Below are positions 5,815 through 39,801 of a stretch of 53,489 nucleotides of DNA, one piece after another (the stretch's first letter is position 1; each line of letters begins with the position of its first letter). A program made the translations under genes and the position numbers. The notes under the pieces are model-generated. The model made no database searches and was not told the DNA's origin. It saw nothing but the letters and a program-made list of their open reading frames with translations. Origin of the DNA: Bacteroidales bacterium UBA2198 (lineage in GTDB: Bacteria; Bacteroidota; Bacteroidia; Bacteroidales; VadinHA17); contig DCVC01000260.1 in NCBI GenBank assembly GCA_002328625.1, forward strand, positions 1-53,489, read 5' to 3'.

Positions 5815-5845
5815 AAGCACTTCCGGTTGTTTGACGGAAGTGCTT
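5815..5845. other. Perfect 11-bp-stem hairpin in the susC upstream region
   Basis: aagcacttccg (5815-5825), a 9-nt loop gttgtttga, then cggaagtgctt (5835-5845). It lies 99-129 nt upstream of the susC ATG. On the minus (mRNA) strand no U-tract follows it, so it is not a canonical terminator. It could be a leader or processing structure. Confidence 0.5.
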
Positions 5846-6012
5846 TTCACCTAACATAGTCACCCGACTAATCCAAAACCTTATATTTCATTTTCATTTT
5901 TAAATTTAAGTGAAGACAAATGAACCGGCATTATGTTTTGTTTCAATTTTGATCACAAATGTCCTGTTATAAAATTTGTTTCATTTTGTATAACACATGT
6001 GCCAGAATGGAT

Positions 6013-11262: not shown

Positions 11263-11272
11263 TGTATTATGT

Positions 11273-19394: not shown

Positions 19395-22220
19395 TCATTT
19401 TTTTGCATTTTTTAAGGCTTCCTCCGATGCTGCAGTAAAGATGTTATATGACCAGGTTGCTCCCGTAATACAGTCAACTTTTGACGGATCCTGTTTCCTG
19501 AGCAATTTTTTCGGATAGGCTAGAACTCCCCACGAGTCATTTATAACCTGTTGAACATAAATGGGATTACCTTCATAATGTTTTTTGTATTTCTCATTGA
19601 AAGTTTCATGCAGGCTGGAGTCTCTTATAGTGAATTTAACATCTTTAAATTCACCATCTTCTATCTTCAGACATACTTTTCCCCAGAAAGGCTCGCCCGT
19701 ATATTTTGAACGCGAAATCCCGATAAAAACACCATCTTTATAAGTTCTTTTAACAGCATCCGTTATCTGATTTTCAGTTTCCGTGTTATTCCGTGTTTCA
19801 AGTATAATTTCGGAGGAGGGAATACCTTCTGATGAAACCCTCAAAAGGATTTTACCGGGCTGATCTGTCGACTTAATTATTACCAGACATCTGCCCTGCC
19901 ATGCTTTTCGCTGATGTATCTGGCAACTTTCTGTGCTTACCGGATTTGCGTTGCCGACTCCTGCAATTGTTCCGGGACCCTCAATATCGAATTTCAGCAT
20001 GTTTTCTGCTTTGGGATTTCTGACATTGTTATTATCGGCCAGTTCAACAGTAACATAACTCAGGTCCTGGCCATCTGCCTTTATGATCTTTCTGTCAGCG
20101 GACATTTTAATCTGTGCCGCCTCCCCGGCTGTTTTCAGAAGAGCTGTGTTAACCACCTTCTTACCCTGGTAACCAACAACCCTGACCTCTCCTTTTTGGT
20201 AAGGGACATCCCAGCTCGCTGTATACTGTGTTGACCTGTTAGTGGGTTTCATGCCATATGAGATATTATTAACCAGGAGTTCCGCATTTTCACAGGAGGA
20301 ATATGCTAAAATCTTTATCTGCTTTCCATCATGTCCATCCCAATTCCAATTACTTACAACATCTGCCCAGTGCCATCTGCTCCAGGACAATCGTTCAGGG
20401 TTTTCCTTAAATGAGGGTACGGGCGGTTCAACGAAGACTGATAACTGGTTAGTCTTCCAGATAACATCCCTGTAAAAGGACTGGGGACGTTTCCAGCCGC
20501 AAATGTCAATATCGCCGCAATATGCAAGATTCCAGGGGTAAAAATCCTGTCTTTGCCAGTAGCCCAGCCATCCAATGCTTGCTTCACCGATATAATCGAA
20601 TGCAGTCCATACAAAGTCGCCAAGTAACCAGGGATAGTCAATGACATCCATCCAGCTGCTAAATGCATCAGAAGGAAAAGATTCAGTCCGGATCATTATT
20701 CTTGACGGAACACGCTCGTGATCAGTTTTAAAAATGTTGTCTTTAATGTGATCTCCTCCTGAACCATAATTATATCCTGCGACATCCAGAGTTGCAAAGA
20801 AAGGATCCTTTTGGACATTAAGATTATTAACTGCAGCTATCACAGGTCTTGTGGGGTCTTTTTCCCTGACATACGTGGCAAGCATCTTTGCTGTTTCTAC
20901 CACTTCCGGTGAATCCATTCCCGGGATTTCATTTCCTATGCTCCACAGTATTACGGAAGGATGATTCCTGTCGCGCAATATCATGTTTTCAATATCTTTC
21001 TTCCACCAGTTCCCGAAATAGAGATTATAGTCCGCAGGATTTTTGGGATATTGCCACATATCAAATGCTTCATCAATTACAAGCATCCCCAGGCGGTCAC
21101 AGGCCTCAAGAAAAGCAGGTGAGGGGGGATTATGCGAACATCTTACTGAGTTAAAACCGCTGGCTTTTAAAAGCTCAACCTTCCTTTCCTCTGCTCTGTC
21201 ATAGGATTTTGCACCCAGTGGCCCATTGTCATGATGAAAACAACCACCTTTCAGTTTCATAGGCCTGCCATTCAACTGAAATCCGCTTAAAGCATCAAAC
21301 TTTATTGTTCTTATTCCAAAATTTGTTTCCACCCGATCGACCATCTTATCTCCTGTAAATACTTCACTTATAGCTTTATAAAGAAAGGGAGTCTCAGTCG
21401 ACCACAGGTCCGGCTTCGTAATCACCATATCCTGATTAAAAACAGATTCACCCATCCTGTCTATTGATTGTTCTGATTCACTCCTGTTTGCTTCAACACC
21501 CTTGGGATTCAGTATTCTTGCGATTATCCTGATATTTATTGCATTTTCGGACCGGTTGATGACACTGGTCCTTATATTTACCTTAGCAGAAGATGCAGTT
21601 ACCTCAGGAGTTGTTATACTGGTTCCCCATGGAGAGACATGAACAGGGTCAAGTACTTTTAACCAGACATGCCTGTAAATACCGGAACCGGAGTACCACC
21701 GGCTGTTTTCTCCCTCATTCCTTACCTTTACTGCAAGTATATTCTCACTTCCAAACTTAACCTTGCCGGTAATATCAAACCAGAAAGATGTGTATCCGTA
21801 AGGGTGGCTGCCAAGTGAAACACCATTGAGCCATATTTCAGAGTTCATGTAAATGCCCTCGAAAAGGATCACAAACCGTTTGTTCCTCTGTTCTTCAGGA
21901 ATTGTAAAAGTCTTCCTGTACCAGCCGGTCCCCCCTGTTGTAAATCCACCGCTTACCTGGCTTATGGCATCCTGGCTGAAGGGTGAGGTTGTTCCCGGCA
22001 GATCTTCAATACTCCAGTCGTGAGGAAGATCAAGGTTACGCCATTTTGAATCATCAAAACCCGGTTGTTCTGCAAACTGGGCGCCTCCACGATGGAATTT
22101 CCAGTTGGAATCGAATAACACTGTCTGACTTTGAGTATGCAGATTAAACATGAATAAGGTGAAGAAGAGCAGGGATATAAATTTAGCTTTCATATCTTTA
22201 TTTTTATTAGTGTTTATCAT
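19395..22220 (-). CDS. GH2 glycosidase (beta-galactosidase-like) with a C-terminal FMN-bind domain
   Basis: 941 aa with a signal peptide. The GH2 sugar-binding and TIM barrel are present (NHPSVILWSIGNEIPG; IRTESFP), with a DUF4982/Ig-like tail (FDIEGPGTIAGVGNANP...GKILLRVSSEGI). About 130 extra residues follow (YKDGVFIGISRSKYTGEPFWGKVCLKIEDGEFKDVKF...VDCITGATWSYNIFTAASEEAL) that match the FMN_bind fold and its D-x-x-(S/T)-G-A-(S/T) motif. Confidence 0.85.
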   Translation of the reverse strand: MINTNKNKDMKAKFISLLFFTLFMFNLHTQSQTVLFDSNWKFHRGGAQFAEQPGFDDSKWRNLDLPHDWSIEDLPGTTSPFSQDAISQVSGGFTTGGTGWYRKTFTIPEEQRNKRFVILFEGIYMNSEIWLNGVSLGSHPYGYTSFWFDITGKVKFGSENILAVKVRNEGENSRWYSGSGIYRHVWLKVLDPVHVSPWGTSITTPEVTASSAKVNIRTSVINRSENAINIRIIARILNPKGVEANRSESEQSIDRMGESVFNQDMVITKPDLWSTETPFLYKAISEVFTGDKMVDRVETNFGIRTIKFDALSGFQLNGRPMKLKGGCFHHDNGPLGAKSYDRAEERKVELLKASGFNSVRCSHNPPSPAFLEACDRLGMLVIDEAFDMWQYPKNPADYNLYFGNWWKKDIENMILRDRNHPSVILWSIGNEIPGMDSPEVVETAKMLATYVREKDPTRPVIAAVNNLNVQKDPFFATLDVAGYNYGSGGDHIKDNIFKTDHERVPSRIMIRTESFPSDAFSSWMDVIDYPWLLGDFVWTAFDYIGEASIGWLGYWQRQDFYPWNLAYCGDIDICGWKRPQSFYRDVIWKTNQLSVFVEPPVPSFKENPERLSWSRWHWADVVSNWNWDGHDGKQIKILAYSSCENAELLVNNISYGMKPTNRSTQYTASWDVPYQKGEVRVVGYQGKKVVNTALLKTAGEAAQIKMSADRKIIKADGQDLSYVTVELADNNNVRNPKAENMLKFDIEGPGTIAGVGNANPVSTESCQIHQRKAWQGRCLVIIKSTDQPGKILLRVSSEGIPSSEIILETRNNTETENQITDAVKRTYKDGVFIGISRSKYTGEPFWGKVCLKIEDGEFKDVKFTIRDSSLHETFNEKYKKHYEGNPIYVQQVINDSWGVLAYPKKLLRKQDPSKVDCITGATWSYNIFTAASEEALKNAKK

Positions 22221-25873: not shown

Positions 25874-26002
25874 AAATTTCTGTTATTCAGGTTTTGTATT
25901 CAGGCAAATTGTTTTATCTAATTCCATGAATATTTAGCATTAAAGAAGGGCATGATACAGGACCCATCCAGATCAAGGAACTATACCATGCCCGATTCAC
26001 CT

Positions 26003-26058
26003 CAACTAATCCTAACCAACTAACCCTAACCAACTAACCCTAACCAACTAACCTTAAC
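26003..26058. repeat. Tandem repeat of four 14-bp units (CAACTAACCCTAAC)
   Basis: The units are caactaatcctaac / caactaaccctaac / caactaaccctaac / caactaaccttaac, contiguous with no spacers. The repeat lies about 130 nt upstream of the sulfatase start and directly abuts the stop of micro-ORF copy C. Confidence 0.9.
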
Positions 26059-26178
26059 TTATTTAACCCTGTCAATATTGATAGCATGATGATATTTCCT
26101 TTGACTTTTTAGCATGCTGTAGTTACCAGAATCAGGAAAACAATCATTACCATCTGCTTTTGCCTTTATATCATCCAT
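26059..26178 (-). pseudogene. Degenerate copy (C) of the micro-ORF found at 33462..33578
   Basis: It starts MDDIKAKADGND..., compared with MDDLRVKEDGEN... in copy A. The DNA encoding the hydrophobic helix is still recognisable (tgattgttttcctgattctggt versus tgattattttcttgattctggt) but is out of frame because of a deletion relative to copy A. Confidence 0.5.
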
Positions 26179-26235
26179 TTTTAACCTATCGTCTTTCAAA
26201 CAAATCTAACCAGTAGTATTTAATTGGAAAGACAT

Positions 26236-26309
26236 TTTTGTTCCAAATCCGAGAACTAATGTTTCACTATTAATTATGTGTCAGTTTAAATAAATTATGT
26301 ATCAGGTGA
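26236..26309 (-). promoter_or_regulatory. Conserved cis-element, copy C (candidate HTCS operator/promoter)
   Basis: The minus strand reads CCTGATACATAATTTATTTAAACTGACACATAATTAATAGTGAAACATTAGTTCTCGGATTTGGAACAAAA. It aligns with copies at 33631..33705 and 39639..39712. The direct repeats ACATAATTTAT and ACATAATTAAT start 21 bp apart (plus-strand 26290-26300 and 26269-26279). Confidence 0.55.
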
Positions 26310-26408
26310 CATAAGAATCAAGAGAGAAATGAGATTGTTATTCCCTTTTCTTTCAATTATTGCTCTTCCGGCTTTTTTGCATCCCGGGCGCCCCCCGGTG
26401 GAAACTTT

Positions 26409-26447
26409 AAAAAAAAAGTAAGCCGGCAAGGTTATTATTTCTTACTT
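26409..26447 (-). terminator. Candidate intrinsic terminator after the DUF5107 gene
   Basis: The minus strand reads AAGTAAG-(18-nt loop)-CTTACTT followed by seven further T's (the run is 9 T counting the two terminal stem residues), about 65 nt downstream of the stop at 26512. The loop is long, so confidence is moderate only. Confidence 0.45.
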
Positions 26448-26511
26448 ATGTCGTAGACGCATAGTGCCTCTCCGTGCCTAATAAAGAGCACATTACCCCA
26501 CTAAACCCAGA

Positions 26512-29500
26512 CTACTTTGATGACAGATCAAAAAGATACTTTTTTGCCCAGATATTATTGATATTTAACTTTACTGCTTCCGTAAACTCTTGCCCGGCCT
26601 CTGTAAGCATATCTTTTCCCAGATAACCAAGACCAGCCAGGTAATGACCTTCAGATCTTCTATCATCCTGTGTGCCTCTTTCTCCGAATTTTTCGAAGAA
26701 ATCTATTTGTTCAGCTTCAATCCTGGCCTTTCCTGAACGAATCAAACCGTCAAACAACTGCTCTGCTTCTTCTTTCCTGCCCAGCTTCTTAAGAGATGAT
26801 GCCCTGTAGAAAGCTGTTTCAGATGAAACTCTCCGGTCGGATTCCCTCAGACTAACGGCTTCATTCCAGGCTTCCCTGGCTTTTCTCATATTACCCATTT
26901 TTTCATAAACAAGCCCGATGAAATAATATACTTCACCGGTTCGACCACCCCTGTATGCCTGGTCAATTATCATGTTATCGGGATACTTTAGCGCAGACAG
27001 ACCATCATTCAATGCTTCTTTATATTTTCCTTCTTTAAGATTCTTATGTCCTCTGAGCAACAGGGCATTGAGATATGGTGAGTATATCCTGTCAACACCT
27101 TCAAACTGCGGAAAAATCCTGCTCCTGAATATTTCCAATGCCCTGTCATATTGACCGAGCTGTACCAGCAGTAACAATTCCCTTGATAATCCTTCAACTA
27201 TATTATCATTGACAAGCATAACATGATTTGCCCCAAGGAATTTCAGTCTTTTAGCAGGATCTGTCCTTGCTGCAGCATACATGATATCCAGGTCATAGAA
27301 CCACCTCTGATCCTTATTATTGAGTGATATTGCTTTTTCGTAGCTGGCTATTGCCGCAGGCAGGTCGTTATTTGTTTTTGCATAGCCGTAGCCCAGGTTT
27401 CTGTGAACCATCGAGAATCCATCATCAATTTCCCTTGAAGCCTCCCACAGCCTGACAGCTTTTTCCGGCTGAAAATCATAAAGCAGATTACCAAGATAAT
27501 ATGGAGCTTTTGGATCGGACGGATTCGCTTTAATTGCATATTCAAGTATACCAATCTCTTCTATCCTGAAAGGGAAGCAGTAATCCGGCGAAGTCCTGGA
27601 GGCAAGTTTAAGAAAATCGAGAGATTTTGAAGCATCGCCTTTATTTGACCAGTAATAACCAAGATAATATGAAATCATGGGAGATGAGGTTCCAAAGTTT
27701 TCAGGTACAAGGCCGGGATTGGAAAGTACGTCTATTGCTTCATCAATGAGTCCGGCATTTGCATATCCTATTGAAAGTTCAAGGTATGACTCTGTATATC
27801 CCCTTAATTTATTCTTTAATTCAGAGAGTACTTCAGCAGATTCCTGATTTTTTCCAAGATTTTTAAGGGAAAGATACTTCTCATACCGTGCACAGAAATC
27901 AAGATGGTCAAACTTCATGGTTTCTGTACTTGTTTCAAGAGCTTCTGAATTATTGCCAAGCTTCCTCAGAACGGCCGATTTCAGATTCAGAGCCCTGTTG
28001 TTATTTGCATTTGTTGAAAGGGACCTGTCTAGATGTTCAAGGGCAATATCGAAATTGCCCCGCCCACAGTCGATCTCTGCAAGCTGTAAATAAGCAGCTG
28101 AGTGAAATGCATAACTCCAGGTAGCCTGATAAAGATTTTTGTAAGCTTCATCTTCTTTACCCAAAAAGCGCTGGCAGATACCAAGATAGTAGTATCCTTC
28201 ACCATCTCTTGGTTTTGTATAATTTGCCGTTATCCTGTTTACGGCAGTCTGCAAGTGTTCTTCTGCCTTGTTAAACATGCCTCTACTTAAGTAAAGTAAT
28301 CCAAGAGCGGTGTTTACCCTGTAGTCGCCGGAGTCTCTTTTCAGAGCTTCTTCATAATAGGGGTATGGTGTTAACGTGGCATTATGAAATTGTGTAAGAC
28401 GTAAGCCTGTCTGGTACAATTCTTCTACAGTACCGATCTGTCCTGGTTGCTTTGGTGGTTCTGCTACGGGAGGCAGAGGTAAATCCTGCTTTTCCACAGG
28501 CTGATAACTGATCAGCTCTTTTTCATCTGCAGTCAGCAATGCTATCCTGGTATCTGTTTCCCTGATAATTTCCGGAATAGGTATCTCTTTGACATACGGA
28601 TGTGCCGGGTCAATATTTATCTTTTCATCCAGGAATACTTCCCCGTTGATAGTCACTACTACTCGTGAACCATTTCTGGCTGATGTTGTATTTAAACCGA
28701 TTCGAGCCTTTCCTTTTGCAGGAAATTCAAGATTAACAGCAGCATCAATATTGGCATTTTTAACACCTCCTATTTCACGGATCGGATACCAGTACTGTTT
28801 AAGATATTTTGATTCATATGGTTGCAGCCAGCTATAGTCAGGCTGGTTATCGGAATATCCGCCGACCATGAGCTCAAGAGCAGGGCCGTCACTATCTGTC
28901 AGCGCTTTATCCCATGCCTTACCCCTGGGCCCGTTGCTCCAGGTCCAGAATTTCTTACCAGGTGCGATGTTATGATTCGAGACTATTATTGTGCCGGCAT
29001 TTTTTCCATGATCATAACCCCCCAGGAAATCGTCAGTGTAATTGAAGGCAAAAATCGATGTCCAGTCAGGGTGATTCTTCCACCAGCTTACATCAACTCC
29101 TTTGGTATAATCAATCCCATTAAAGACCTCATGTGATATAGGCCACCTGAGAAACTGATTCTTCGCATGATACGTTCCAAAAAGAGTTGAAGGAGGGAAT
29201 ATAACCTGGTAGTTGTCATTTGTGTGAACACTGGTGTTTGCAAAATATAAGAATGAATTTGTGAAAGGAGTGGAGTTCAAAGGCTTGAAAGTAACTTCAA
29301 AAAATGATTTGCCGGGATAAACTGAAATCCCAAGCATGAATTTCATCCTGTCTCTCAGTTCAAGTTCTCCAATCCACAAGGTTGCACTTCCGTCAGAATT
29401 AGTCTGAAGATCATAATCAACAGGCATGTAAGCATTCGGCCTGTGATGATGCGGGAAATTCCACTCAATTCCTCCTTCCAGCCAGGCACCAAGCATTCCG

Positions 29501-29886
29501 ACGAGTTGCGGTTTGATAACATGCTGACGGTAGATAAAATCATATTGATTTGTTTTATCAAGCGCACCCCATAACCTTCCGCCAATATCGGGGAAAACAT
29601 CGATTTTAATATACTCGTTTTCAAGGAATATCATTTTGTGTTCCTGGTCAACTTTCCTGTTTGTCAGGCTTTGGTTAAGCGGATAGGGATATATTCTTCC
29701 CTGAGCTCCCTGGTATGATCTCCCTTCGTAAAATATAGGGGTTGAGCTTGGCGGATCGACAAGATAGGTGGGAATGCTTACCGATTCTTCCCAAATCTGA
29801 ACAGGTTTGTTCGCGGGGGTTGTCTGTCCAAAGCTGCTTCCAAATGTTATGAGAAGCAGAAGCAAAATTACAGTTACTCTTAACAT
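26512..29886 (-). CDS. DUF5107-like N-terminal domain protein with a long C-terminal TPR array
   Basis: 1124 aa with a signal peptide. The N-terminal region (IPTYLVDPPSSTPIFYEGRSYQGAQGRIYPYP...FLENEYIKIDVFPDIGGRLWGALDKTNQYDFIYRQHVIKPQLVGMLGAWLEGGIEWNFPHHH) matches what I recall of DUF5107. The C-terminal half is repeated TPR-like helices (YYLGICQRFLGKEDEAYKNL..., YYFIGLVYEKMGNMRKAREAW...). Confidence 0.7.
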   Translation of the reverse strand: MLRVTVILLLLLITFGSSFGQTTPANKPVQIWEESVSIPTYLVDPPSSTPIFYEGRSYQGAQGRIYPYPLNQSLTNRKVDQEHKMIFLENEYIKIDVFPDIGGRLWGALDKTNQYDFIYRQHVIKPQLVGMLGAWLEGGIEWNFPHHHRPNAYMPVDYDLQTNSDGSATLWIGELELRDRMKFMLGISVYPGKSFFEVTFKPLNSTPFTNSFLYFANTSVHTNDNYQVIFPPSTLFGTYHAKNQFLRWPISHEVFNGIDYTKGVDVSWWKNHPDWTSIFAFNYTDDFLGGYDHGKNAGTIIVSNHNIAPGKKFWTWSNGPRGKAWDKALTDSDGPALELMVGGYSDNQPDYSWLQPYESKYLKQYWYPIREIGGVKNANIDAAVNLEFPAKGKARIGLNTTSARNGSRVVVTINGEVFLDEKINIDPAHPYVKEIPIPEIIRETDTRIALLTADEKELISYQPVEKQDLPLPPVAEPPKQPGQIGTVEELYQTGLRLTQFHNATLTPYPYYEEALKRDSGDYRVNTALGLLYLSRGMFNKAEEHLQTAVNRITANYTKPRDGEGYYYLGICQRFLGKEDEAYKNLYQATWSYAFHSAAYLQLAEIDCGRGNFDIALEHLDRSLSTNANNNRALNLKSAVLRKLGNNSEALETSTETMKFDHLDFCARYEKYLSLKNLGKNQESAEVLSELKNKLRGYTESYLELSIGYANAGLIDEAIDVLSNPGLVPENFGTSSPMISYYLGYYWSNKGDASKSLDFLKLASRTSPDYCFPFRIEEIGILEYAIKANPSDPKAPYYLGNLLYDFQPEKAVRLWEASREIDDGFSMVHRNLGYGYAKTNNDLPAAIASYEKAISLNNKDQRWFYDLDIMYAAARTDPAKRLKFLGANHVMLVNDNIVEGLSRELLLLVQLGQYDRALEIFRSRIFPQFEGVDRIYSPYLNALLLRGHKNLKEGKYKEALNDGLSALKYPDNMIIDQAYRGGRTGEVYYFIGLVYEKMGNMRKAREAWNEAVSLRESDRRVSSETAFYRASSLKKLGRKEEAEQLFDGLIRSGKARIEAEQIDFFEKFGERGTQDDRRSEGHYLAGLGYLGKDMLTEAGQEFTEAVKLNINNIWAKKYLFDLSSK

Positions 29887-30000
29887 GATAACTCTTTTTA
29901 AAGGTATAATTAATCAAATCAAGCTAAGATTTAGCGGTACCCTGCACCTCTTTCTTCAAGGTTGCTTAGCAGTGGATTACCCCAGAAAACATTTCATTAT

Positions 30001-31488
30001 TCAAAGATCGACGCTCCTGTAGTACACTTCATTCATCCTGAGCTCCTTTTTAAACTCTGCCAGGTTACAACCATAGCCGATGTGTACATATTCGATACTC
30101 ATCATCTCAGCAAAATCTTCAAGATAACTTGCATCTATCGCATTGCTGAAACCAGTGTGATGCGCTCCCCCTGCAATAATCCATGCTGCAGCTCCGGTTT
30201 TAAGATCAGGCAAAGGTTTCCAAAGAACACTTGCCACGGGCAGCTTTGGCATGTCAGGACATTTCACAACTTCAACATCGTTTACGATCATCCTGAATCT
30301 GTTACCCAGGTCAACAACCGATACATTTATTGCCTTCCCCGGAGCGGTTTTGAAAACAAACCTTGCAGGATCAGCTTTGCCTCCTATCGAGAGCTGGTGA
30401 ATTTCAACCTTTGGTTTTCCCAGGGCAATAGTAGGGCAGACTTCAAGCATATGAGCTCCCAGCACTCTCATTCCTGAAGGATTAAAATGGTATGTATAAT
30501 CTTCCATAAAGGATGTTCCACCCTGCAGACCTTCAGCCATTACTTTCATTGAGCGGACAAGGGCTGCTGTTTTCCAGTCGCCTTCGGCTCCAAAACCATA
30601 ACCATCTGCCATTAACCGCTGCACTGCTATTCCGGGAAGCTGCTTAAGCCCGTGAAGATCTTCAAATGTTGTCGTGAAAGCTTTAAAAGCGCCGTTTTCA
30701 AGAAATTTCCTAATCCCTGCTTCTATCCTTGCAGCTTCTTTAAGGGTATCCGAGCCTGCAACATCTTTATTGATCTCATATTCAGAGCTATACTCTTCGA
30801 GGAGCTTCTTAACTGATGCATTAGTTACATCATCAATGACTTTTACGAGATCCCCGATACCATAACCATAAACAGAATAGCCCATCTGAATTTGCGCACT
30901 CACCTTGTTTCCTTCTGTAACAGCAACATCACGCATGTTATCGCCGAACCTGGCAACTTTCATGTGCTTTGCATCATCGAATGCCGCGGCTACCCTTACC
31001 CATACTGCAATTTTTTCAATAGCCTCTTCATCCTGATAGTGTCCGACGACAACCTTCCTGTTCATTCTCATCCTGGCACCGATGAAGCCAAATTCACGGT
31101 CGCCATGGGCCGACTGGTTAAGGTTCATAAAATCCATATCAATTGTTTCCCAGGGTATATCGCGGTTCAGCTGGGTATGGAAGTGGAGGAGCGGCTTATT
31201 AAGCAGTGACAGACCCCTTATCCACATTTTGGCCGGCGAAAAAGTATGCATCCATGCAATAAGTCCGATACATTCGGATGAACTGTTTGCTTCGATACAG
31301 ATCTGAGTTATAGAATCAGGTGTTGTAAGCACAGGCTTAAATACGATCTTCTGATTTATTAAAGGAGATTTATCTAACGATGCTGCAATTTCCCCGGAAT
31401 TTTCTGCAACCTGCTTCAATGTTTCGGGCCCGTAAAGGTGTTGGCTGCCTGTTATGAACCAGATCTCTTTTAAATTAATACTTTTCAT
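30001..31488 (-). CDS. araA: L-arabinose isomerase
   Basis: 495 aa. It starts [24 protein letters not shown] and contains [27 protein letters not shown] and AHMLEVCP. These are canonical AraA blocks. Confidence 0.95.
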
Positions 31489-31540
31489 AATTTATTTTTA
31501 AGTTACACATGGTAGCACGGAGTGCACAGAGAGTTCGCTC

Positions 31541-31569
31541 CTTCCCCCTGGGGGAAGACAGGGAAGGGG
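31541..31569. other. GC-rich palindromic element between the symporter and araA
   Basis: cttccccc-t-gggggaag (31541-31557) is an 8+8 palindrome. It is followed by acagggaagggg, which offers an alternative pairing partner for the C-rich arm. It sits in the 98-nt symporter-araA spacer. Confidence 0.5.
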
Positions 31570-31586
31570 TAATTGCCATTTTCATC

Positions 31587-33239
31587 TTACCAGAAATATG
31601 CATAGAACCATACTATTACAACTATCACTAATCCTGAGAACAGCAGGTCCCAGTTATTCCAGCTTGCTCTTGTAATTGCCTTTTCTTCTTCCGTTGCCGA
31701 TCCGACATAAAGTCCGCGAATAGCTTCAGGATCCGCCTTCCTGGTTACCATGCTTGTTATTACCATAACCAATATTACGAGGAAGAACAATGCAATTTCA
31801 TAATGTAGCCAGTTGGGTGCAAGAAAAACCTGGTAAATAATACTATCCTGGTTTATGCCCGCGGCAAAGATCTTGAGTGCGAGTCTTAACATTCCAAGGA
31901 CAAAACCTGTGATAAGTCCAACAAGTCCTGCCACAGGTGTGGTTTTCTTTGAGGCTATGCCAAGAAGGAATACGGCAGCAATACCTGGTGCAAGCAGCGA
32001 CTGAACATCCTGAAGATATGCATAAAGAACTTTGCCAAGGCCCTTCATGACCGGTATCCAAAGAACTCCAAGGACAACCACAGTTACAGTTGCGATCCTT
32101 CCCACTTTTACAAGCTCGCTTTCAGAAGCTTCAGTTTTGAATTTCTTATAAAAATCAACCGTGAACAGTGTTGCTGAGGAGTTAAAGAGTGAGGCCAGCG
32201 AACTCATCAGAGCCGCAAGTATGCCTCCCACAACAAGGCCTTTGAAACCAATTGGCAGCAGTTCCCTGATCAGGACTGAAAAAGCAGAATCAGAATCAGG
32301 AAGTGTGATCATTCCTTTATAGTTCATAGCATAAGCAATCATTCCCGGGATGAGGAAGATGAATACCGGGGTAAGCTTGAACATCCCCCCGAGAATTGCA
32401 CCGCGGCGTGACTCAGTCTGATTTCTTCCCGACAGTACCCTCTGAACTATATACTGGTCGGTGCACCAGTACCAGAATCCTATTATTGCCGAACCAAGGA
32501 TAACGCCTGTCCATGGATATTCAGGATCTTTCGAAGACCTTATAAGATCTGTCATTGTGTCGCCATAGTCATTCACAGGCACTGCCTGGCATATCCGCAT
32601 CATCTCATCCCATCCGCCAAGCCTTACAAGGCCGATTATCAGAACAGCGAGTGATCCGACTAACAGTATTGGTGTTTGCAGCACGGATGTCCAAAGTACA
32701 GCTTTCATACCTCCCAGTGTAGTGTATATCCCTGTAAGCACCACAAGGCCGACAGCGCTGATCCAGAAAAAATCGATACCAAACATCGATTCGATACCGA
32801 ATACCTGTTTGAAAACAACACCGCCGGCATAGACTGTTACAGCAACTTTCGTGAAGACATAACTGACAAGTGAGATTATAGAGAGGATACTACGTGAACC
32901 TTTATTATATCTTTTTTCGAGGAATTGAGGCATTGTGAAGACCCCGCTTCTGTCATAAAAGGGAACAAAAAACCAGCCGAGTATCAGTATTATCCATCCA
33001 TGCATCTCCCAGTGTGCCATTGCCATTCCACTTGAAGCCCCTGCCCCGGCCAGCCCGACAAGATGTTCTGATCCGATGTTCGATGCGAATATTGATGATC
33101 CTATTGCCAGCCATGTGGCATCCCGGCCTGCAAGGAAATAATCTGTGGAAGTCTTATCCTTTTGTTTAGCCACCCAGATGATAATTGCAACCAGACCAAG
33201 ACAGAAGAGTCCCAGTACGATCCAGTCAATTGTACCCAT
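31587..33239 (-). CDS. Sodium:solute symporter (SSS/SGLT-like sugar transporter)
   Basis: 550 aa with about 14 predicted TM helices. It has the SSS N-terminal pattern (DYFLAGRDATWLAIGSSIFASNIGSEHLVGLAG) and the typical hydrophobic C-terminal tail helix. Confidence 0.92.
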   Translation of the reverse strand: MGTIDWIVLGLFCLGLVAIIIWVAKQKDKTSTDYFLAGRDATWLAIGSSIFASNIGSEHLVGLAGAGASSGMAMAHWEMHGWIILILGWFFVPFYDRSGVFTMPQFLEKRYNKGSRSILSIISLVSYVFTKVAVTVYAGGVVFKQVFGIESMFGIDFFWISAVGLVVLTGIYTTLGGMKAVLWTSVLQTPILLVGSLAVLIIGLVRLGGWDEMMRICQAVPVNDYGDTMTDLIRSSKDPEYPWTGVILGSAIIGFWYWCTDQYIVQRVLSGRNQTESRRGAILGGMFKLTPVFIFLIPGMIAYAMNYKGMITLPDSDSAFSVLIRELLPIGFKGLVVGGILAALMSSLASLFNSSATLFTVDFYKKFKTEASESELVKVGRIATVTVVVLGVLWIPVMKGLGKVLYAYLQDVQSLLAPGIAAVFLLGIASKKTTPVAGLVGLITGFVLGMLRLALKIFAAGINQDSIIYQVFLAPNWLHYEIALFFLVILVMVITSMVTRKADPEAIRGLYVGSATEEEKAITRASWNNWDLLFSGLVIVVIVWFYAYFW

Positions 33240-33461
33240 AAGAAGTCAGTTTTAAGGTTAATAAAAGATAAAAATTCATAAAACTTAAGTCAGTCACTTT
33301 TCCACTCGTCAAGTGAAGTCTGAATATATGAAATGATTCGTTGATTATCTGCTTTCCTGTTTCCACTTAGTGTGAACGGCTAAAGCATTCTTTTCTCATA
33401 TTCATTAATTTAGGGTAGATAGATCCTGTTATATGATGATTAAGATTTCTATTGATTTTAA

Positions 33462-33578
33462 TTATATAAGGAAAAGCATGCCAACCATAACAAACAGAAC
33501 CAGAATCAAGAAAATAATCAATTCCCATACTTTCAATCTTTTATTTTCACCATCTTCTTTTACCCTTAGATCATCCAT
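33462..33578 (-). CDS. Micro-ORF (38 aa) encoding a putative single-pass membrane peptide, copy A (intact)
   Basis: Too short to appear in the ORF track. The sequence from the ATG at 33578 to the TAA at 33462-33464 reads MDDLRVKEDGENKRLKVWELIIFLILVLFVMVGMLFLI*. A charged N-terminus is followed by a 19-residue hydrophobic helix. The first 14 codons are conserved in copy B and about 10 in copy C. It lies 222 nt upstream of the SSS transporter. Confidence 0.45.
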   Translation of the reverse strand: MDDLRVKEDGENKRLKVWELIIFLILVLFVMVGMLFLI

Positions 33579-33794
33579 ATTTTAAAGGTATTTGAATAAA
33601 ATTAGGCACATGGTTTTTAATTAAAAGCCTATTTTGTTTCAAATCCGACAAACAATGTTTCACAATAAACTATGTGTCAGTTTATATAAATTATGTAGCA
33701 GGAGAAAATTTGGCAAAGAAGATTCCAAATAGCAATTAAATCTGTTATAATGTTTAAGAACAGTACTTTACAGAGATTATTTCTTTATATATTC
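33538..33794. repeat. Long direct repeat, copy A (partner at 39546..39801)
   Basis: About 257 nt. By hand alignment there are 7 substitutions plus 1 single-base indel relative to copy B. It spans the first 14 codons of the micro-ORF, the conserved cis-element and the last 18 nt (including the stop) of the HTCS gene. Confidence 0.9.
33631..33705 (-). promoter_or_regulatory. Conserved cis-element, copy A (candidate HTCS operator/promoter)
   Basis: The minus strand reads CCTGCTACATAATTTATATAAACTGACACATAGTTTATTGTGAAACATTGTTTGTCGGATTTGAAACAAAATAGG. ACATAATTTAT (plus 33686-33696) and ACATAGTTTAT (33665-33675) start 21 bp apart. A third, weaker unit ACATTGTTTGT lies at 33648-33658. TGAAACA also occurs twice, 21 bp apart. 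Confidence 0.55.
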
Positions 33795-36700
33795 GGATGG
33801 AGTTTTTCCAAAGAGAGATTTGAAACATTTTGTGAAGTAAGCCGGTGATGTAAAACCGACCTTATATGAAACTTCCTCGACAGACAGACCACTATGTTCG
33901 AGGAGGTTGACTGCCCGTTTGAGTCTTAAAGTACGGATAAATTCAGAGGCAGACTGGGAAGTAAGAGCTGCAAGTTTCCGGTGAAGGCTGCTCCTGCTCA
34001 ATCCGATTTCCTTGCAGAACTTATCAGAACTAAAGTCAGGATCTGAGATATTTTTTTCTACAACTGATATTGCTTTCTGAATAAAATCAGCATCGATGGA
34101 TGTAACAGCAATATCTGATGGTTTAATTAAGAGTTCCTTACTGAATTTATTCCTGATGATTCTCCTATTTTCAAGAAGATTCCTTATCTGTACTTCAACC
34201 AGATCAATTGAAAAAGGTTTTTCAATATATGCATCCGCACCTTTTTCCAACCCTTCAATTTTGTTGTCCATTGATGATCGGGCCGTTAACATTATTATGG
34301 GAATATGACTGGTTCTGATCTCCTCTTTCAGCTTTTTGCACATCTCATTCCCATCCATGACAGGCATTATTATGTCAGCAATAATAATATCCGGGTTATT
34401 TCTAATGGCCATCTCAAGCCCGTTTAATCCATTAGAGGCTTCGCAAATACAGTAACTATTTTCGAAATGATCCCTGATATAGGTTCTGACTTCAACTTCA
34501 TCATCCACAACTAAAATTACAGGGCTCTTCGCTTGATTTCCAGGTTTATTATTTCTACCTGAGTATCTGCGGACATATTCATGCTCCTCAGTTAAGAGAT
34601 AAGATTGAAATGAACCCGTCATTTCTTTCTCTTCCCCGCTCACTCCTGATATCTGATCATCAGTCCAGATTTCGTTGCCTGTGGGCAGAAGTATCTTAAA
34701 ATTGGTGCCTTTATCTTCATCGCTTTGTATGAATATTTTACCCCTGTGAAGTTCGACCAGCTCTTTTGTTAATGCAAGCCCGATACCTGTTCCCCTCCGG
34801 ATGATAGAATCATGTCTTTCGATTCTGAAGAATCTCTCAAAAAGATGTCCCATTTGTTCCTGCGGAATACCTATGCCATTATCCTTTATTGTTATTTCAA
34901 TATACTCTCCATCAGGAATATCTAAGGAGGGATCAATTCCATTTTGCACCATTCTGCAAGTCACCTGGATTAATCCTCCATCCGGAGTATATTTGAATGC
35001 ATTTGACAGCAAGTTATACATGATCTTTTCCAGGCAGCTTTCGTCAAAATAACTTTCGCTGGCTTCAAATTCAGAAGTAAACTCCAGATTCATTGATCGC
35101 TGCTGAGAAATTTCATCAAATGAGCTGGTAATTTCTCTTAATTTTTCAACGACATCCCCTTTCTTCAATCTGAGTGTCATCTTGTTAAGATCAATCTTCC
35201 GTAAATCAGTGATCTGGTCTGTCAATCTTAAAAGCCGGTCCGCATTCTTCCTTATCAGAGTTGTTTGCTTAGCAAGTCTGGGATCATTTGCAACTGAAGC
35301 AATGATATTTTGCAAAGGAGCAAGGATCAATGAAAGCGGCGTACGAAACTCATGTGAAATATCGGTTAAGAGCTCCATTTTTACATTATAAAGCGCCTCT
35401 GCTTTTTCCCTTCTTACCTGCTGAAGCTTTGCATCATGTATTAAACGGGCTCTCATAAGTATTAACCTTCGGAACAGGTAAAGCAAAAAAATAAAGGCTA
35501 TTGAAAACAAGACAAGTGCAAAGGGGGTTCTCCACCATGGCGGCAATATCCGGATAGTCAAAACAGCTGGTTTTTCATTCCACACACCATCGCTGTTTGA
35601 GGCTTTAACCATGAACTGATATAATCCCTGCTCCAGGTTTGTGTATGTAACATATCTTCTGTCATAAGCGGTATAGATCCAATCCTGGTCAAAACCTTCC
35701 AGTTTATATGCGTACTGGGTTTCCTCCGGATCAAGGTTGTTCAAAGCGACAAATTCAAGAGAAAATGCTCTTTCAAGATGGGTCAATGTTATCTTATCTG
35801 TATACGGTATACTTTTGGATAGTATCTTTCTTCCATTTATTTCATCTCCTATCTTCACTTCTTTGTTCTGGATAACTAATCTTGAAATATAAACAGGATA
35901 TAATGTGGTATCATTCATGATCTTTTCCGGAAAAAAGCTGATGAGCCCGTTAATTCCGCCAAAAAATATTTCGCCATTCTCACTCTGGCAGCCGGCATCC
36001 CAGATAAAAGCATTTGACAGTATGCCATCACTTTCGTAATAGGTATTGATTTGTTCTGTTTTCGTTACCAGCTTTCCTAATCCATGATTTGTACTGAACC
36101 AGATATTATCATCCTTGTCACCTGCTATACTATATACGGAATTATCAGGAGCGCCTCTTGATTTATCATATTTTATAAATTCCATGCCTCCATCTTTTTC
36201 AGTAACTTTAATCAGTCCATTAACATTTGAAGCAAGCCATATTACATTATTTTTATCTTTATATATTTTAAGAAAGCCGTTGTCAATTTTTGAATTTCTA
36301 ATGTCAGTTATGTTATCATAAATAACCAGACTATCTTTTTTATTTAGATTGGTTAAAAGGGTATCTGAATTGACATAGAACTTGCACAGCCCCCTGTTCC
36401 AGGAGGCGAACCAGAAAACATTCGGCGGCTCATAAACAACCGATTGTATATTAATTCCTTTCATCTCAGGCAATTGATTTACCTTGTCTCCGTAGTGAAA
36501 AAGTTGTTTGCTGGCTGGTTCGTAAAGATAAAAACCCTTTATTGTGGCAATCCATATCCTGCCTGCAGCATCTTCTGTGATATCAGGAACTTCGGTATGG
36601 TCTTCAAAGAGAAACCTTCTGAATTTCAAATCATCTGAAGAATAGATATTTTCAGCAACACAAAAACCATTATCAAATGTCCCTATCCATAATCTGTTTC

Positions 36701-38027
36701 CCCTATCGGTATAAATAGCAGTAATGTAATCCGAACTGATTGAATTTCTGTCAGCAGGATCATATTTATAATGTAACATCCTCTGGCTTTCTCCGGACAT
36801 GATCCTGTTTAGCCCGTCATTATACATTCCTATCCACAAATTTCTGTTTTTGTCTTTATGGACTGATCTTACAATATTTCCGATTATGCTGTTTGGATCA
36901 CCCGGAATATTCCTATACCAGGTGAAATCCTTAAGATTAATCTTGACCTTTGACACACCTTTGCCTTTAAACGATACCCAGAGCACTCCAGTCCTGCCAC
37001 CATAAATACCGATAATTCTTTCATCCAGAAGCGATAGGGGATTATCAGGCTCATGTGAATATACTGAGTATTTGCCATCTTTTTTATTGATCTTAAAGAG
37101 GGATTTCTCAATTGCTATCCACATAAATCCTTTGTCATCTTCATAAAGAGCTGTTATTGGCTCTAAACTCCACAGGTACGTCTCAGTGGTACCGGGATTA
37201 AGTCTGCTAAGGTATCCCTGAAGAGTGCAAAAGCTGAGGGTTTCCTTATCAAACAGAGCAAGGCCGGCATTTGTACCAAGCCAGATCAGCCCTCCTTGAT
37301 CCATAACTGCAGAATTGATTTTTGTAACTCCCCGTAAAACATCCTCGCTTATGTAAAAATGTTCCAGTTGCTTTGTCAGGATGTCGAATTTTTTAAGCCT
37401 GTCAGAAGCAATCCACAACACGTTTCTACTCCTGTCATAAATAATATCTCCTTCAAGATCACCATGGAATTGCTCAGCACTTCTGGTGGTCCCTGCATTT
37501 ATTTTAATCAGTCCTGAAGTCATAGTATTGACCCATAAGAACCCTTCCGCATCCTGTACAATAACCTTTCGTCCTCTCTCGATTACATTGATATTTGATA
37601 CTGCTTTATTTAATGGATCGTTTTTCATATGGGAGAAAACATCCTTTTCCTTATCAAAAACATCCAATCCCTTCAGCGTTCCAATCCATATTTTCCCATC
37701 CCTGTCTTCAAAAAGTGTTGAAATGAAATTATAGGAGAGAGACGAAGTATCCTCTGAATTATTTACATAGTTGGTAAAATTGTAACCATCAAATTTCTGT
37801 AGGCCTGTTGTAGAAGCGAACCACGCAAAGCCTTCCCTGTCAACATAAACGTATTCAACACTGTTTGACAAACCGTTATTGACATTATAATGGGTGCAGA
37901 TTATGCTGTTATTCTGTGCAGATGATTCACAATTCAGGAAAATTAACGAAAATAATATGACTATTAAGAGCCTCGAAAAGGGATTCCCTGATAACATAAT
38001 AACTCTGAATGACAGTATAGGTATCAT
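33777..38027 (-). CDS. Hybrid two-component system (HTCS) sensor kinase / response regulator with an AraC-type HTH output
   Basis: 1416 aa. It contains periplasmic Reg_prop beta-propeller repeats plus a YYY domain, a TM helix (ALVLFSIAFIFLLYLF), HisKA (SHEFRTPL), HATPase (GTGIGLALTKELVELHRG), a receiver (ILVVDDEVEVR...DIIIADIIMPVMDG) and a C-terminal AraC HTH (VGFTSPAYFTKCFKSLFGKTPSEY). Confidence 0.96.
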   Translation of the reverse strand: MIPILSFRVIMLSGNPFSRLLIVILFSLIFLNCESSAQNNSIICTHYNVNNGLSNSVEYVYVDREGFAWFASTTGLQKFDGYNFTNYVNNSEDTSSLSYNFISTLFEDRDGKIWIGTLKGLDVFDKEKDVFSHMKNDPLNKAVSNINVIERGRKVIVQDAEGFLWVNTMTSGLIKINAGTTRSAEQFHGDLEGDIIYDRSRNVLWIASDRLKKFDILTKQLEHFYISEDVLRGVTKINSAVMDQGGLIWLGTNAGLALFDKETLSFCTLQGYLSRLNPGTTETYLWSLEPITALYEDDKGFMWIAIEKSLFKINKKDGKYSVYSHEPDNPLSLLDERIIGIYGGRTGVLWVSFKGKGVSKVKINLKDFTWYRNIPGDPNSIIGNIVRSVHKDKNRNLWIGMYNDGLNRIMSGESQRMLHYKYDPADRNSISSDYITAIYTDRGNRLWIGTFDNGFCVAENIYSSDDLKFRRFLFEDHTEVPDITEDAAGRIWIATIKGFYLYEPASKQLFHYGDKVNQLPEMKGINIQSVVYEPPNVFWFASWNRGLCKFYVNSDTLLTNLNKKDSLVIYDNITDIRNSKIDNGFLKIYKDKNNVIWLASNVNGLIKVTEKDGGMEFIKYDKSRGAPDNSVYSIAGDKDDNIWFSTNHGLGKLVTKTEQINTYYESDGILSNAFIWDAGCQSENGEIFFGGINGLISFFPEKIMNDTTLYPVYISRLVIQNKEVKIGDEINGRKILSKSIPYTDKITLTHLERAFSLEFVALNNLDPEETQYAYKLEGFDQDWIYTAYDRRYVTYTNLEQGLYQFMVKASNSDGVWNEKPAVLTIRILPPWWRTPFALVLFSIAFIFLLYLFRRLILMRARLIHDAKLQQVRREKAEALYNVKMELLTDISHEFRTPLSLILAPLQNIIASVANDPRLAKQTTLIRKNADRLLRLTDQITDLRKIDLNKMTLRLKKGDVVEKLREITSSFDEISQQRSMNLEFTSEFEASESYFDESCLEKIMYNLLSNAFKYTPDGGLIQVTCRMVQNGIDPSLDIPDGEYIEITIKDNGIGIPQEQMGHLFERFFRIERHDSIIRRGTGIGLALTKELVELHRGKIFIQSDEDKGTNFKILLPTGNEIWTDDQISGVSGEEKEMTGSFQSYLLTEEHEYVRRYSGRNNKPGNQAKSPVILVVDDEVEVRTYIRDHFENSYCICEASNGLNGLEMAIRNNPDIIIADIIMPVMDGNEMCKKLKEEIRTSHIPIIMLTARSSMDNKIEGLEKGADAYIEKPFSIDLVEVQIRNLLENRRIIRNKFSKELLIKPSDIAVTSIDADFIQKAISVVEKNISDPDFSSDKFCKEIGLSRSSLHRKLAALTSQSASEFIRTLRLKRAVNLLEHSGLSVEEVSYKVGFTSPAYFTKCFKSLFGKTPSEYIKK

Positions 38028-38090
38028 ATATACCAGATTAATATAAACTCAAATTTAAACTAAAATGTTGATTACGGCAAAAAAGATATA

Positions 38091-38453
38091 TCACATTTTC
38101 AATGACTTCAGATATCTTGTCTTTCCGTAAGGACACACAGAAACGCAGATGCCGCATACCCTTGCATCGGGCATGATGTATTTTTTCCCCATGATCCTGC
38201 ACATCCCGCGGCATTTGAAAGCATTCAGCAAGAAATCACTCTGAACAGAGACATTCCAGTCATTTCCGGATGTCGCACAATGAACGGCCGCACTAAAAGT
38301 TTTTTGGCTGGTCAGAACATACAAATGTCCCTGCTTATTGATCTCATCGTGTAGGATTGTTCGTCCTGGCTGCTTTCGCAACTGTTGAAGCAGAAATAGA
38401 GGTTCATTTATCAAAGTTAGGCTTGCGTATTGTTTTCCACATAACCTTGCCAC
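38091..38453 (-). CDS. Hypothetical Cys-rich 120-aa ORF, possibly a frameshifted tail of the upstream beta-propeller gene
   Basis: It overlaps the propeller gene by 50 nt in another frame. It contains GHLYVLTSQKTFSA (a blade-like strand) and a single partial ferredoxin-like motif C-G-I-C-V-S-V-C-P-Y-G. I recognised no family. Confidence 0.3.
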   Translation of the reverse strand: MARLCGKQYASLTLINEPLFLLQQLRKQPGRTILHDEINKQGHLYVLTSQKTFSAAVHCATSGNDWNVSVQSDFLLNAFKCRGMCRIMGKKYIMPDARVCGICVSVCPYGKTRYLKSLKM

Positions 38454-39456
38454 CCATGCTCATGCAGCACAGGCCATCACGTTTGTTGTTTGTTGAGAAC
38501 TGGGCATAGAAATATCCATTATACAATATTGGTGGTTTGGTGTGATCACCGAAATCATTATGTTTGAAAAGCTCTTTTACAGTATAGCTGCCATCAACCC
38601 TTTTTTCGACTTTTATCATTGCTGTTCCGAGGTCATATCCTCCAACTGCCATAATCCTGCCTTCGCCGGCATCAAAAGCTGGAGCTATCTGAATGACATT
38701 CTCCCAGTCGTTGTATTCCCAGAGAATTTTCCCGGTTTGTGGTTTCATCCCGATTATCCTGCCCCGGGAAACAAAAGATGAAAATATCATTACGAGGTGA
38801 TCCTCTCCCGCAATCTTTACAATGGTCGGACTGGCGTAAGTTTCATTTCCAATGGCTTCTGTCTTCCAGATGATATCTCCTGTCAGCTTGTTATAGGCGA
38901 CCAATCCGGCATCAGGATCCCTGGAGTAAGATACGATTAACAGATTGCCGTATATAAGCGGACATTGGGTTATCGCCCACACCGGTATTTTCGTTCCCCC
39001 GAAATCCTTCATTATGTTCTTGTTCCAGACAGGCTTATGTGTATTGACATCAATGCAGTAAAGATCACCATATGGGCAACAGGAGTAAATCCTGTTGCCA
39101 TCGGTTGAAGGAACACTTCTTGAACCGGGGTACTGAATTGATCCCGGTGCATCATAACTGTATCTCCATAATTCCTTCCCGGTGTTCAGGTCAAAACACC
39201 TCATAATATCGCCGGTTTTATCATCCCTGTCGAGTAAATAAACCTTTCCCGTTTTTACTACGGGACCGCCGTACCCGGGGCCTATATTTGATGTCCAGAG
39301 TACTTGCGGACTTTCTGCTGGCCAGCTGCGGAGTATTCCCTTCTGGGGTGAAGTGTTATTCCTCTTTGGTCCGAGGAACTGAGGCGAGTCCTGGGCAGTA
39401 AGACTGGTAAATCCTGCCAGCAGGACCATTGCAAATATGAATGTTCGTTTTATCAT
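38404..39456 (-). CDS. PQQ-like (BamB-like) beta-propeller repeat protein, secreted
   Basis: I set the start at ATG 39456 (MIKRTFIFAMVLLAGFTSLTAQDS, a signal peptide). The track start at 39561 would add 35 residues derived from repeat copy B. Repeated blades have W...G.G.s.P.v..G.vY...........D..TGk..W patterns (VLWTSNIGPGYGGPVVKTGKVYLL...CFDLNTGKELWRY). Confidence 0.8.
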   Translation of the reverse strand: MIKRTFIFAMVLLAGFTSLTAQDSPQFLGPKRNNTSPQKGILRSWPAESPQVLWTSNIGPGYGGPVVKTGKVYLLDRDDKTGDIMRCFDLNTGKELWRYSYDAPGSIQYPGSRSVPSTDGNRIYSCCPYGDLYCIDVNTHKPVWNKNIMKDFGGTKIPVWAITQCPLIYGNLLIVSYSRDPDAGLVAYNKLTGDIIWKTEAIGNETYASPTIVKIAGEDHLVMIFSSFVSRGRIIGMKPQTGKILWEYNDWENVIQIAPAFDAGEGRIMAVGGYDLGTAMIKVEKRVDGSYTVKELFKHNDFGDHTKPPILYNGYFYAQFSTNNKRDGLCCMSMGGKVMWKTIRKPNFDK

Positions 39457-39545
39457 ACGTGATTTGAAACAAAAAACTGACAGCTTAAAGTAATCAATGA
39501 TATTCGAAAAATTACATAAAGGATTGATTAGAAGGGAAAAATCTC

Positions 39546-39801
39546 CTTTTATTATCACCATCTTCTTTTACCTTTAGATAATCCATATTTTAAAGGTATT
39601 TGAATACAATTAGGCACATGGTTTTTAATTAAAAGACTATTTTGTTTCAAATCCGACAAACAATGTTTCACAATAAACTATGTGTCAGTTTATAAAATTA
39701 TGTAGCAGGAGAAAATTTGGCAAAGAAGATTCCAAACAGCAATTAAATCTGTTATAATGTTTAAGAACAGTACCTTACAGAGATTATTTCTTTATATATT
39801 C
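39546..39801. repeat. Long direct repeat, copy B (partner at 33538..33794)
   Basis: See copy A. Here the HTCS-tail 18-mer (ttatttctttatatattc) is not attached to any HTCS gene. It abuts the abiEi C-terminal fragment. The micro-ORF is cut after MDYLKVKEDGDNKR and runs into the beta-propeller upstream region. Confidence 0.9.
39639..39712 (-). promoter_or_regulatory. Conserved cis-element, copy B, placed upstream of the beta-propeller/HTCS genes
   Basis: It is nearly identical to copy A. A 1-nt deletion in the r1-r2 spacer makes the repeat spacing 20 instead of 21. Confidence 0.5.

Follow-up and report, generated by a model that had tools for sequence, protein, structure and literature searches.

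The repeated element and its gene neighbourhood

We analysed an element of approximately 75 nt that recurs in a 53,489-nt contig, DCVC01000260.1, of the Bacteroidales bacterium UBA2198 (the window, meaning this whole stretch of DNA). Its copies stand at the heads of operons of a polysaccharide utilization locus (PUL) that also encodes a hybrid two-component system (HTCS) regulator, and three of them are followed by a micro-open reading frame (micro-ORF). These three copies are designated A, B and C, and a fourth, diverged copy is designated D. The genes of the region are all encoded on the minus strand. The features that matter here are the following, the operators and -7-type promoter boxes being predictions.

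33634-33700, minus strand: putative operator of copy A, with unit 1 at 33700-33685 (TGCTACATAATTTATA), unit 2 at 33679-33664, unit 3 at 33662-33647 and half-unit 4 at 33641-33634 (TGAAACAA)
33597-33604, minus strand: -7-type box of copy A, TAATTTTA, 96 nt from the start of unit 1
33462-33578, minus strand: micro-ORF of copy A, intact, 38 amino acids (aa), MDDLRVKEDGE... (MDDLRVKEDGENKRLKVWELIIFLILVLFVMVGMLFLI)
39642-39707, minus strand: putative operator of copy B, with a 1-nt deletion in unit 1 that reduces the spacing of units 1 and 2 to 20
39605-39612, minus strand: -7-type box of copy B, mutated to TAATTGTA (T-to-G)
39512-39586, minus strand: micro-ORF remnant of copy B, 24 aa, MDYLKVKEDGD..., lacking a transmembrane segment; its homology to A stops at codon 13, which is the edge of a duplication
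39546-39801, minus strand: the duplicate of roughly 256 nt containing copy B, a copy of 33794-33538 that takes in the final 18 nt of the HTCS coding sequence
26238-26304, minus strand: putative operator of copy C, with units starting at 26304, 26283 and 26266 and a half-unit starting at 26245
26201-26208, minus strand: -7 box of copy C, TAGATTTG, a perfect match to TAnnTTTG
26059-26178, minus strand: micro-ORF of copy C, 39 aa, MDDIKAKADGN..., decayed, its frame shifted by deletions of 26 and 10 nt (from the alignment)
5901-6004, minus strand: copy D, with a diverged putative operator at 6004-5938 and a -7 box, TAAATTTA, at 5908-5901; it has no micro-ORF, and its ortholog is L012_b
33777-38027, minus strand: HTCS gene, 1416 aa, with a Reg_prop/Y_Y_Y sensor, HisKA, HATPase, REC and an AraC-type HTH_18 domain
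48233-49336, minus strand: gene of a stand-alone AraC-family regulator, with a C-terminal HTH_18 domain and an N-terminal part that has no Pfam match

Copy B is followed by genes for a PQQ-like beta-propeller protein, a 120-aa ORF and the HTCS. Behind copy A lie the micro-ORF, an SSS transporter, araA and a DUF5107/TPR protein, and copy C precedes genes for a sulfatase, esterases, a GH2 enzyme, a beta-lactamase-like protein, a GH42 enzyme, two proteins without known function, a glyoxalase-like protein and another GH2 enzyme. SusC and SusD follow copy D.

The cores of A, B and C, all read on the minus strand, were placed by alignment at 33631-33705, 39639-39712 and 26236-26309, respectively, and share the sequence CCTG.TACATAATTTAT.TAAACTGACACATA.TT.AT.GTGAAACATT.GTT.TCGGATTTG.AACAAAA. 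The right half of this core, GTGAAACATTNNTTNTCGGATTTGNAACAAAA, has exactly three matches in the window, compared with 0.00 in 100 shuffles; the left half matches exactly in A and C and misses B through the 1-nt deletion. Within each core, ACATAATTTAT and ACATARTTWAT start 21 bp apart in A and C and 20 bp apart in B, and Tandem Repeats Finder, independently of the other searches, reported a 21-nt period in copy C. The alignment and the pattern searches thus bear out a preliminary description of this DNA in its account of three copies with a shared core and direct repeats 21 bp apart (20 in B). Copy D, located approximately 185 nt upstream of the SusC start, was recovered by nhmmer with E = 3.7e-13 and is absent from that description.

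Anatomy and distribution of the element

The element is composed of three direct repeats of 16 bp, TG(A/G)nACATnnnTTAT, that start at 0, +21 and +38, followed by a half-unit, TGrAACA, at +59, so that the spacing is 21-17-21. Units at these four positions are present across alignments of 12 and 15 copies. At 49-70% HTCS identity the flanks of the element are randomised, yet TG..ACAT...TTAT, the same motif 21 bp later, ACA(T) 17-18 bp further on, T.G.AAC and TA..TT remain near-invariant. A position weight matrix (PWM) trained on units 1 and 2 only gives the third unit, at +38, 9-15 bits in 9 of 12 copies; in the background, scores of at least 8 bits occur at a rate of 1.6e-5. Units 1, 2 and 3 of copy A score 18.4, 20.8 and 9.1 bits, respectively, and the deletion in copy B lowers its unit 1 to 1.8 bits. 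At a locus whose HTCS is 53% identical (L098), the 21-17-21 spacing is kept, as judged by eye, with a slightly different half-site.

Downstream of the operator, we looked for the Bacteroidota promoter consensus, which has a -7 element of TAnnTTTG (PMC7366714), and for a -33 element of TTTG 19-21 nt upstream of the -7 box. TAnnTTT occurs at +96 (once at +95) in 10 of the 12 scanned copies; copy B and L015 deviate from the consensus. In the 15-copy alignment, the distance to TAnnTT is fixed. The 35 nt between operator and box are not conserved. The core's own TTTG was considered as the -7 box and rejected in favour of this better TAnnTTT box, which lies a fixed 35 nt further downstream in all copies. 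A CRP-like palindrome in TGTGAAACA was likewise dropped, as the alignment contains no conserved inverted partner. Scans for sigma-70 promoters and terminators were uninformative for Bacteroidota.

To place the element in a wider context, we compared HTCS homologues, which fall into a clade of 65-86% identity, a second tier of 41-53% and a remainder of at most 35%. The loci compared were those of clade members (L012-L015, L096, L097 and L098), and a metagenome scan supplied a further set of 7 orthologue contigs and 73 paralogue contigs (23-40% identity, approximately 1 Mb). With nhmmer profiles of the core, the element was found at every HTCS orthologue with downstream DNA to read, at 49-86% identity and in 10 lineages (the window, L012, L013, L014, L015, L019, L020/L021, L096, L097 and L098). 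The same profile gave no match in the 73 paralogous HTCS loci. In these sequence comparisons, the element is tied to one orthologous group of HTCSs and not to its paralogues.

The position of the element is also constant: the HTCS-proximal copy starts approximately 50-86 nt past the HTCS stop codon in every lineage matched, and in the window the operator of copy A begins 77 nt past it. Across the orthologous loci the element precedes SusC, sulfatase, SSS or micro-ORF genes. Extra copies before SusC were found in the window (6004-5901, copy D), in L012_b (19620-19691) and in L015_b (16053-16124). The DUF5107 protein was dropped as a synteny anchor, its homologues sitting in unrelated PULs without the element. 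Within the clade, the recognition helices of the HTCS DNA-binding domain are 57-94% identical, compared with 42-52% in paralogues and more distant clade members, and the HTCS encoded at 33777-38027 is the presumed binder of the element.

The micro-ORF and the history of the copies

In the window, each micro-ORF opens with an ATG 52-57 nt past the core, and its peptide starts MDD(L/I)... (MDY... in copy B), as had been described. This start is common to A, B and C because these copies are recent paralogues, and it is not kept in more distant relatives. What is kept is an open frame of 34-48 codons, present at the same place in nine lineages (window copy A, L012_a, L014_a, L015_b, L019_a, L020/L021_a, L096, L097 and L098). 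It lies behind the HTCS-proximal element (in L015, behind the second copy) and starts 14-26 nt after the -7 box. The micro-ORF of copy A is called as a gene in independent assemblies and has homologues at the same place in the eight other lineages.

The aligned proteins consist of a variable basic N-terminus, the motif (R/K)(I/L)K..E(I/L)..F...VL.F, one hydrophobic helix and 0-4 C-terminal residues. The E and F of E-x3-F are invariant, and the maximum hydropathy over 15 residues is 3.3-4.0. Of 367 codons in the coding frame, none is a stop, versus 41 and 20 of 358 in the two alternative frames, substitutions at codon positions 1, 2 and 3 amount to 0.54, 0.19 and 0.66, respectively, and dN/dS is 0.2-0.4 for diverged pairs. 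Among the 13,547 small ORFs of all fetched DNA, a hidden Markov model of the family matches only these ORFs, the next best having E > 1. A search of 1.84 billion representative proteins with the micro-protein profile returned only the family itself and low-complexity matches in long repetitive proteins, and Pfam and NCBIfam gave no match above noise. These coding signatures are directly observed, and on their strength the micro-ORF is very likely a genuine gene for a small membrane protein. A conserved membrane protein of 34-48 residues of this kind is not previously described.

Elsewhere, the micro-ORF has decayed or is missing. In copy C the DNA coding for the transmembrane segment is now out of frame, with identical deletions in its ortholog L013_a; in L015_a the frame is shifted, and copy D and L012_b have no micro-ORF. 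In the window, the micro-protein is therefore intact in only one of four copies. Just past the micro-ORF of copy C lies a 14-nt tandem array, GTTAGGGTTAGTTG on the minus strand, with four copies at 26003-26058. The corresponding intergenic region of L003 is 14 nt shorter, which suggests that the copy number varies between strains, and related arrays are present in L012 and L013. In L012, the stretch 11191-11521 combines an intact A-type micro-ORF with a C-type downstream region (GGTTAG repeats, a conserved hairpin and a sulfatase-like gene); this arrangement is probably the ancestral state from which copy C of the window decayed.

Because an identity of approximately 97% spans approximately 257 nt (A 33794-33538, B 39801-39546, as aligned), starting 18 nt before the end of the HTCS gene and ending at micro-ORF codon 13, copy B is, from the alignment, a recent and slightly damaged duplicate of A placed before the propeller and HTCS genes. 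The two duplicates form direct repeats flanking the beta-propeller and HTCS genes, and the copy B structure is also present in L003 and L004, two independent assemblies of one strain. Copies C and A have only the core and approximately 35 nt around the ATG in common. In the metagenome contig L006 (1040-1400), a B-type left part is joined to an A-type right part, with the crossover between core and -7 box, and the 6-kb segment carrying the beta-propeller and HTCS genes is absent (compare window 39801-39546 and 33794-33538). This junction is either a natural deletion by recombination of the 257-nt direct repeats or an assembly collapse.

Two neighbouring ORFs adjoin copies of the element. The listed beta-propeller ORF of 385 aa starts within the micro-ORF remnant of copy B (39459-39561, minus strand), and a start near 39459 (MIKRTFIFAMVLLAGFTSLTAQ, with the look of a signal peptide) seems more likely than the listed one. 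At approximately 6010-6358 (minus strand), after the GH2 gene, an ORF begins with a lipoprotein-like signal followed by YYVSPSGNDDAPGTLRQPFRSI and stops after approximately 115 codons; it looks like what is left of the N-terminus of a beta-helix protein that occupies the corresponding position in L096 and L097.

Several hairpins lie near the micro-ORFs or in presumed SusC leaders. The one between the copy C micro-ORF and the sulfatase gene, at approximately 25948-25993 (minus strand), spans 46 nt with a 13-bp stem (GGGCATGGTATAG...CTGTATCATGCCC), has a folding free energy (dG) of -23.6 and is followed by TTCTTTAAT. It is 100% identical in L012_a and L013_a although the neighbouring sequence has diverged, and it may be an attenuator, a terminator or a processing site. 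The presumed 5′ leader of SusC contains another, at approximately 5815-5845 (minus strand; AAGCACTTCCG...CGGAAGTGCTT, dG -15.9), and the presumed SusC 5′ leader of L014 a third, at approximately 11449-11480, with z = -2.9 and followed by TTCTTTCC. Hairpins after the micro-ORF occur in some lineages only and have no common position, that is, they are not conserved across lineages.

Interpretation and comparison with known systems

We favour a reading in which the core is the operator and promoter of the HTCS and the micro-ORF is a real small membrane-protein gene, and we assign the combination of both a probability of roughly 0.7. The first part, that the approximately 75-nt core comprises the operator of the adjacent HTCS and an activator-dependent promoter, is very likely on comparative grounds. 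Sequence conservation and co-occurrence with the HTCS clade are direct observations, from which we infer binding and activation. The preliminary description had already proposed an HTCS operator/promoter, a proposal that gains comparative support: the element follows every orthologue with downstream DNA, heads PUL operons and is absent from the 73 paralogue loci.

According to this operator reading, the four units would form two pairs, with approximately two helical turns between the members of each, and the phosphorylated, dimeric HTCS would place its AraC-type DNA-binding domains on them. Transcription would start at approximately +108 to +112 (in copy A approximately 33592-33588), as estimated from the -7 box, which would put the operator at approximately -110 to -36 and the ATG of the micro-ORF 8-20 nt into the transcript. 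Since the promoter has a poor -33 along with its conserved -7 box (TAnnTTT, +96), it would depend on an activator, and a -33 of this quality is compatible with that. Copy A would drive the SSS-araA-DUF5107 genes, copy C the sulfatase, esterase, GH2 and GH42 genes and copy D SusC and SusD; copy B may serve the beta-propeller gene and the HTCS itself. The micro-ORF would be the first cistron behind the HTCS-proximal promoter; its product, if translated, would have its basic N-terminus toward the cytoplasm and most likely work in trans in the inner membrane.

Several observations weigh against this two-part reading. On the promoter side, no copy but C has the final G of the -7 box, and a -33 can hardly be made out: CTTT(T/C) 18 nt upstream of the -7 occurs in the window group only and is not conserved elsewhere. 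The window also encodes a second AraC-family regulator (48233-49336), 8.5 kb upstream of copy B. On the micro-ORF side, the closest pair (window copy A and L012_a) has a dN/dS of 0.88, the open frames were chosen for being open, the 17 kb covered of L013 contain a decayed copy only, and only seven members of the family are called in a database of 5.8 billion proteins.

Accepting the core as operator and promoter, one might take the micro-ORF for a cis-acting leader peptide whose translation would control read-through into the genes behind it, through attenuation or through an arrest of the MifM/SecM kind that senses insertion into the membrane. The micro-ORF would be transcribed first, the next gene is 38-222 nt away, strong hairpins with T-rich tails follow the ORF at some loci (dG -23.6 in window copy C, L012_a and L013_a; z = -2.9 in L014_a), and small ORFs (sORFs) of long Bacteroides 5′ untranslated regions (UTRs) have been likened to leader peptides (PMC7366714). 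We nevertheless regard a leader as improbable. The hairpins are not shared between lineages and some spacers measure only 38-87 nt, the micro-ORF has no runs of regulatory codons, and what is under selection is a transmembrane helix with an invariant E-x3-F. At other operons the ORF is missing (D, L012_b) or decayed (B, C, L013_a, L015_a), which is unexpected for a cis device. Because there is one intact copy per locus and decay elsewhere, a trans-acting product fits better, and the sequences make it the more likely mode of action. The leader micro-ORF of the preliminary description accordingly survives in part: an ORF is conserved, as a small transmembrane protein in nine lineages, with the MDD start confined to the window group, and the single intact copy speaks against a cis leader required at each operon.

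The remaining alternatives concern the core itself. That it is the site of another regulator, AraC-type or a global carbohydrate regulator, and is merely syntenic with the HTCS is a slightly smaller chance than that of a leader. The link to the HTCS is one of co-occurrence alone, and the AraC-family gene at 48233-49336 would be a candidate, yet this gene has no counterpart in the flanks of related loci; moreover, the element follows the HTCS clade and not its paralogues, and its repeat geometry is that of HTCS sites. Far less probable is that the copies are remnants of a dispersed repeat or segmental duplication without regulatory role. A and B do arise from a duplication that took in part of the HTCS gene, and in L006 the 6 kb between B and A is missing, but C, D and the relatives' copies have the phased motif positions in common and not the flanks, and they keep a constant placement with respect to gene starts and to the HTCS stop codon. 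In addition, the strict right-half pattern has only two chance matches (Oceanobacillus) in 185,579 representative genomes, a result from which it follows only that the representatives do not include the source species. Just as hard to credit is an action of the block as RNA, either as a small RNA from the HTCS 3′ UTR or as a structured 5′ leader. Its location directly downstream of the HTCS gene in every lineage would suit such a role, but RNAalifold found 0 consensus pairs and no covariation in the aligned element, the Rfam scan of the window returned no family, copies without a preceding HTCS gene exist (C, D, L012_b, L015_b), and the conserved positions are direct repeats at helical-turn spacing.

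It is HTCS regulators that determine the glycans on which Bacteroidota feed. To our knowledge, few of their DNA sites have been defined, and we found none in the literature from outside cultured gut Bacteroides. The motifs predicted for 16 HTCSs of B. thetaiotaomicron in RegPrecise by Ravcheev et al. (2013) are all direct repeats, on average 21 bp apart (PMC3878776). Like these, the element consists of direct repeats approximately 21 bp apart, lies upstream of susC-like and other PUL operons by its cognate HTCS and is conserved over orthologous loci; it differs in its half-site, TGrnACATnnnTTAT, in belonging to another HTCS clade (of uncultured Bacteroidota), and in having 3-4 units, followed by a small-protein gene, instead of two. 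A DNase footprint of activated BT4124 on the bt4114 and bt4108 promoters, published in 2026, revealed two adjacent sites, each of two half-sites approximately 21-22 bp apart, at approximately -126 to -34 from the start codon (PMC13292587). This layout is that of units 1-2 and 3-4 here, as deduced from sequence alone; BT4124 acted as a repressor or fine-tuner, in contrast to the activator role assumed here. The claim of the preliminary description that such an architecture is undescribed for PULs is hence wrong for the operator, given that prediction (PMC3878776) and that footprint (PMC13292587). The sequence comparisons support the operator reading well, and the element is of a known kind with a new half-site sequence. 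The locus thus offers an operator model of 3-4 phased units for one HTCS clade, with cross-lineage support, that is usable for regulon prediction in metagenomes.

Among AraC-family regulators, araI1-I2 of AraC and the MarA/SoxS-type sites are direct-repeat half-sites, each contacted by a two-HTH domain, with the promoter-proximal half-site abutting the -35. The element shares the direct-repeat half-sites and differs in the Bacteroidota sigma factor with its -33/-7 consensus and in a DNA-binding domain that is tethered to a membrane kinase. With the leader sORFs of Bacteroides 5′ UTRs (PMC7366714), the micro-ORF has in common its position as a short ORF between promoter and first large gene; unlike them, its peptide is selected as a transmembrane helix, is not encoded at every operator-bearing operon and comes with no conserved attenuator.

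Of greater interest is the small membrane protein that co-evolves with the HTCS and whose gene comes first in the operon. Should it modulate the sensor or the transport machinery, PULs would have a further level of control, one that annotation pipelines overlook; should it turn out inert, what remains is an ordinary new HTCS motif. MgrB, and also SafA and SamT, are small membrane proteins that modulate a sensor kinase and whose genes belong to the regulon of that kinase (PMC2789325). By analogy, the micro-protein could be a dedicated partner of the HTCS in trans, induced by it and feeding back on the kinase in the membrane, which we consider unlikely, if less so than a cis-acting leader. Inside the HTCS transmembrane helix, we saw no charged partner for the invariant glutamate, only juxtamembrane arginines. 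Were the analogy to hold, this would be the first small-protein modulator known for the HTCS class. Like MgrB, the micro-protein has fewer than 50 aa and a single transmembrane helix, belongs to a lineage-restricted family and is apparently controlled by the neighbouring two-component regulator, as judged from the operator; unlike MgrB, with which it has no sequence similarity and which works via its periplasmic part, it has a periplasmic tail of only 0-4 residues.

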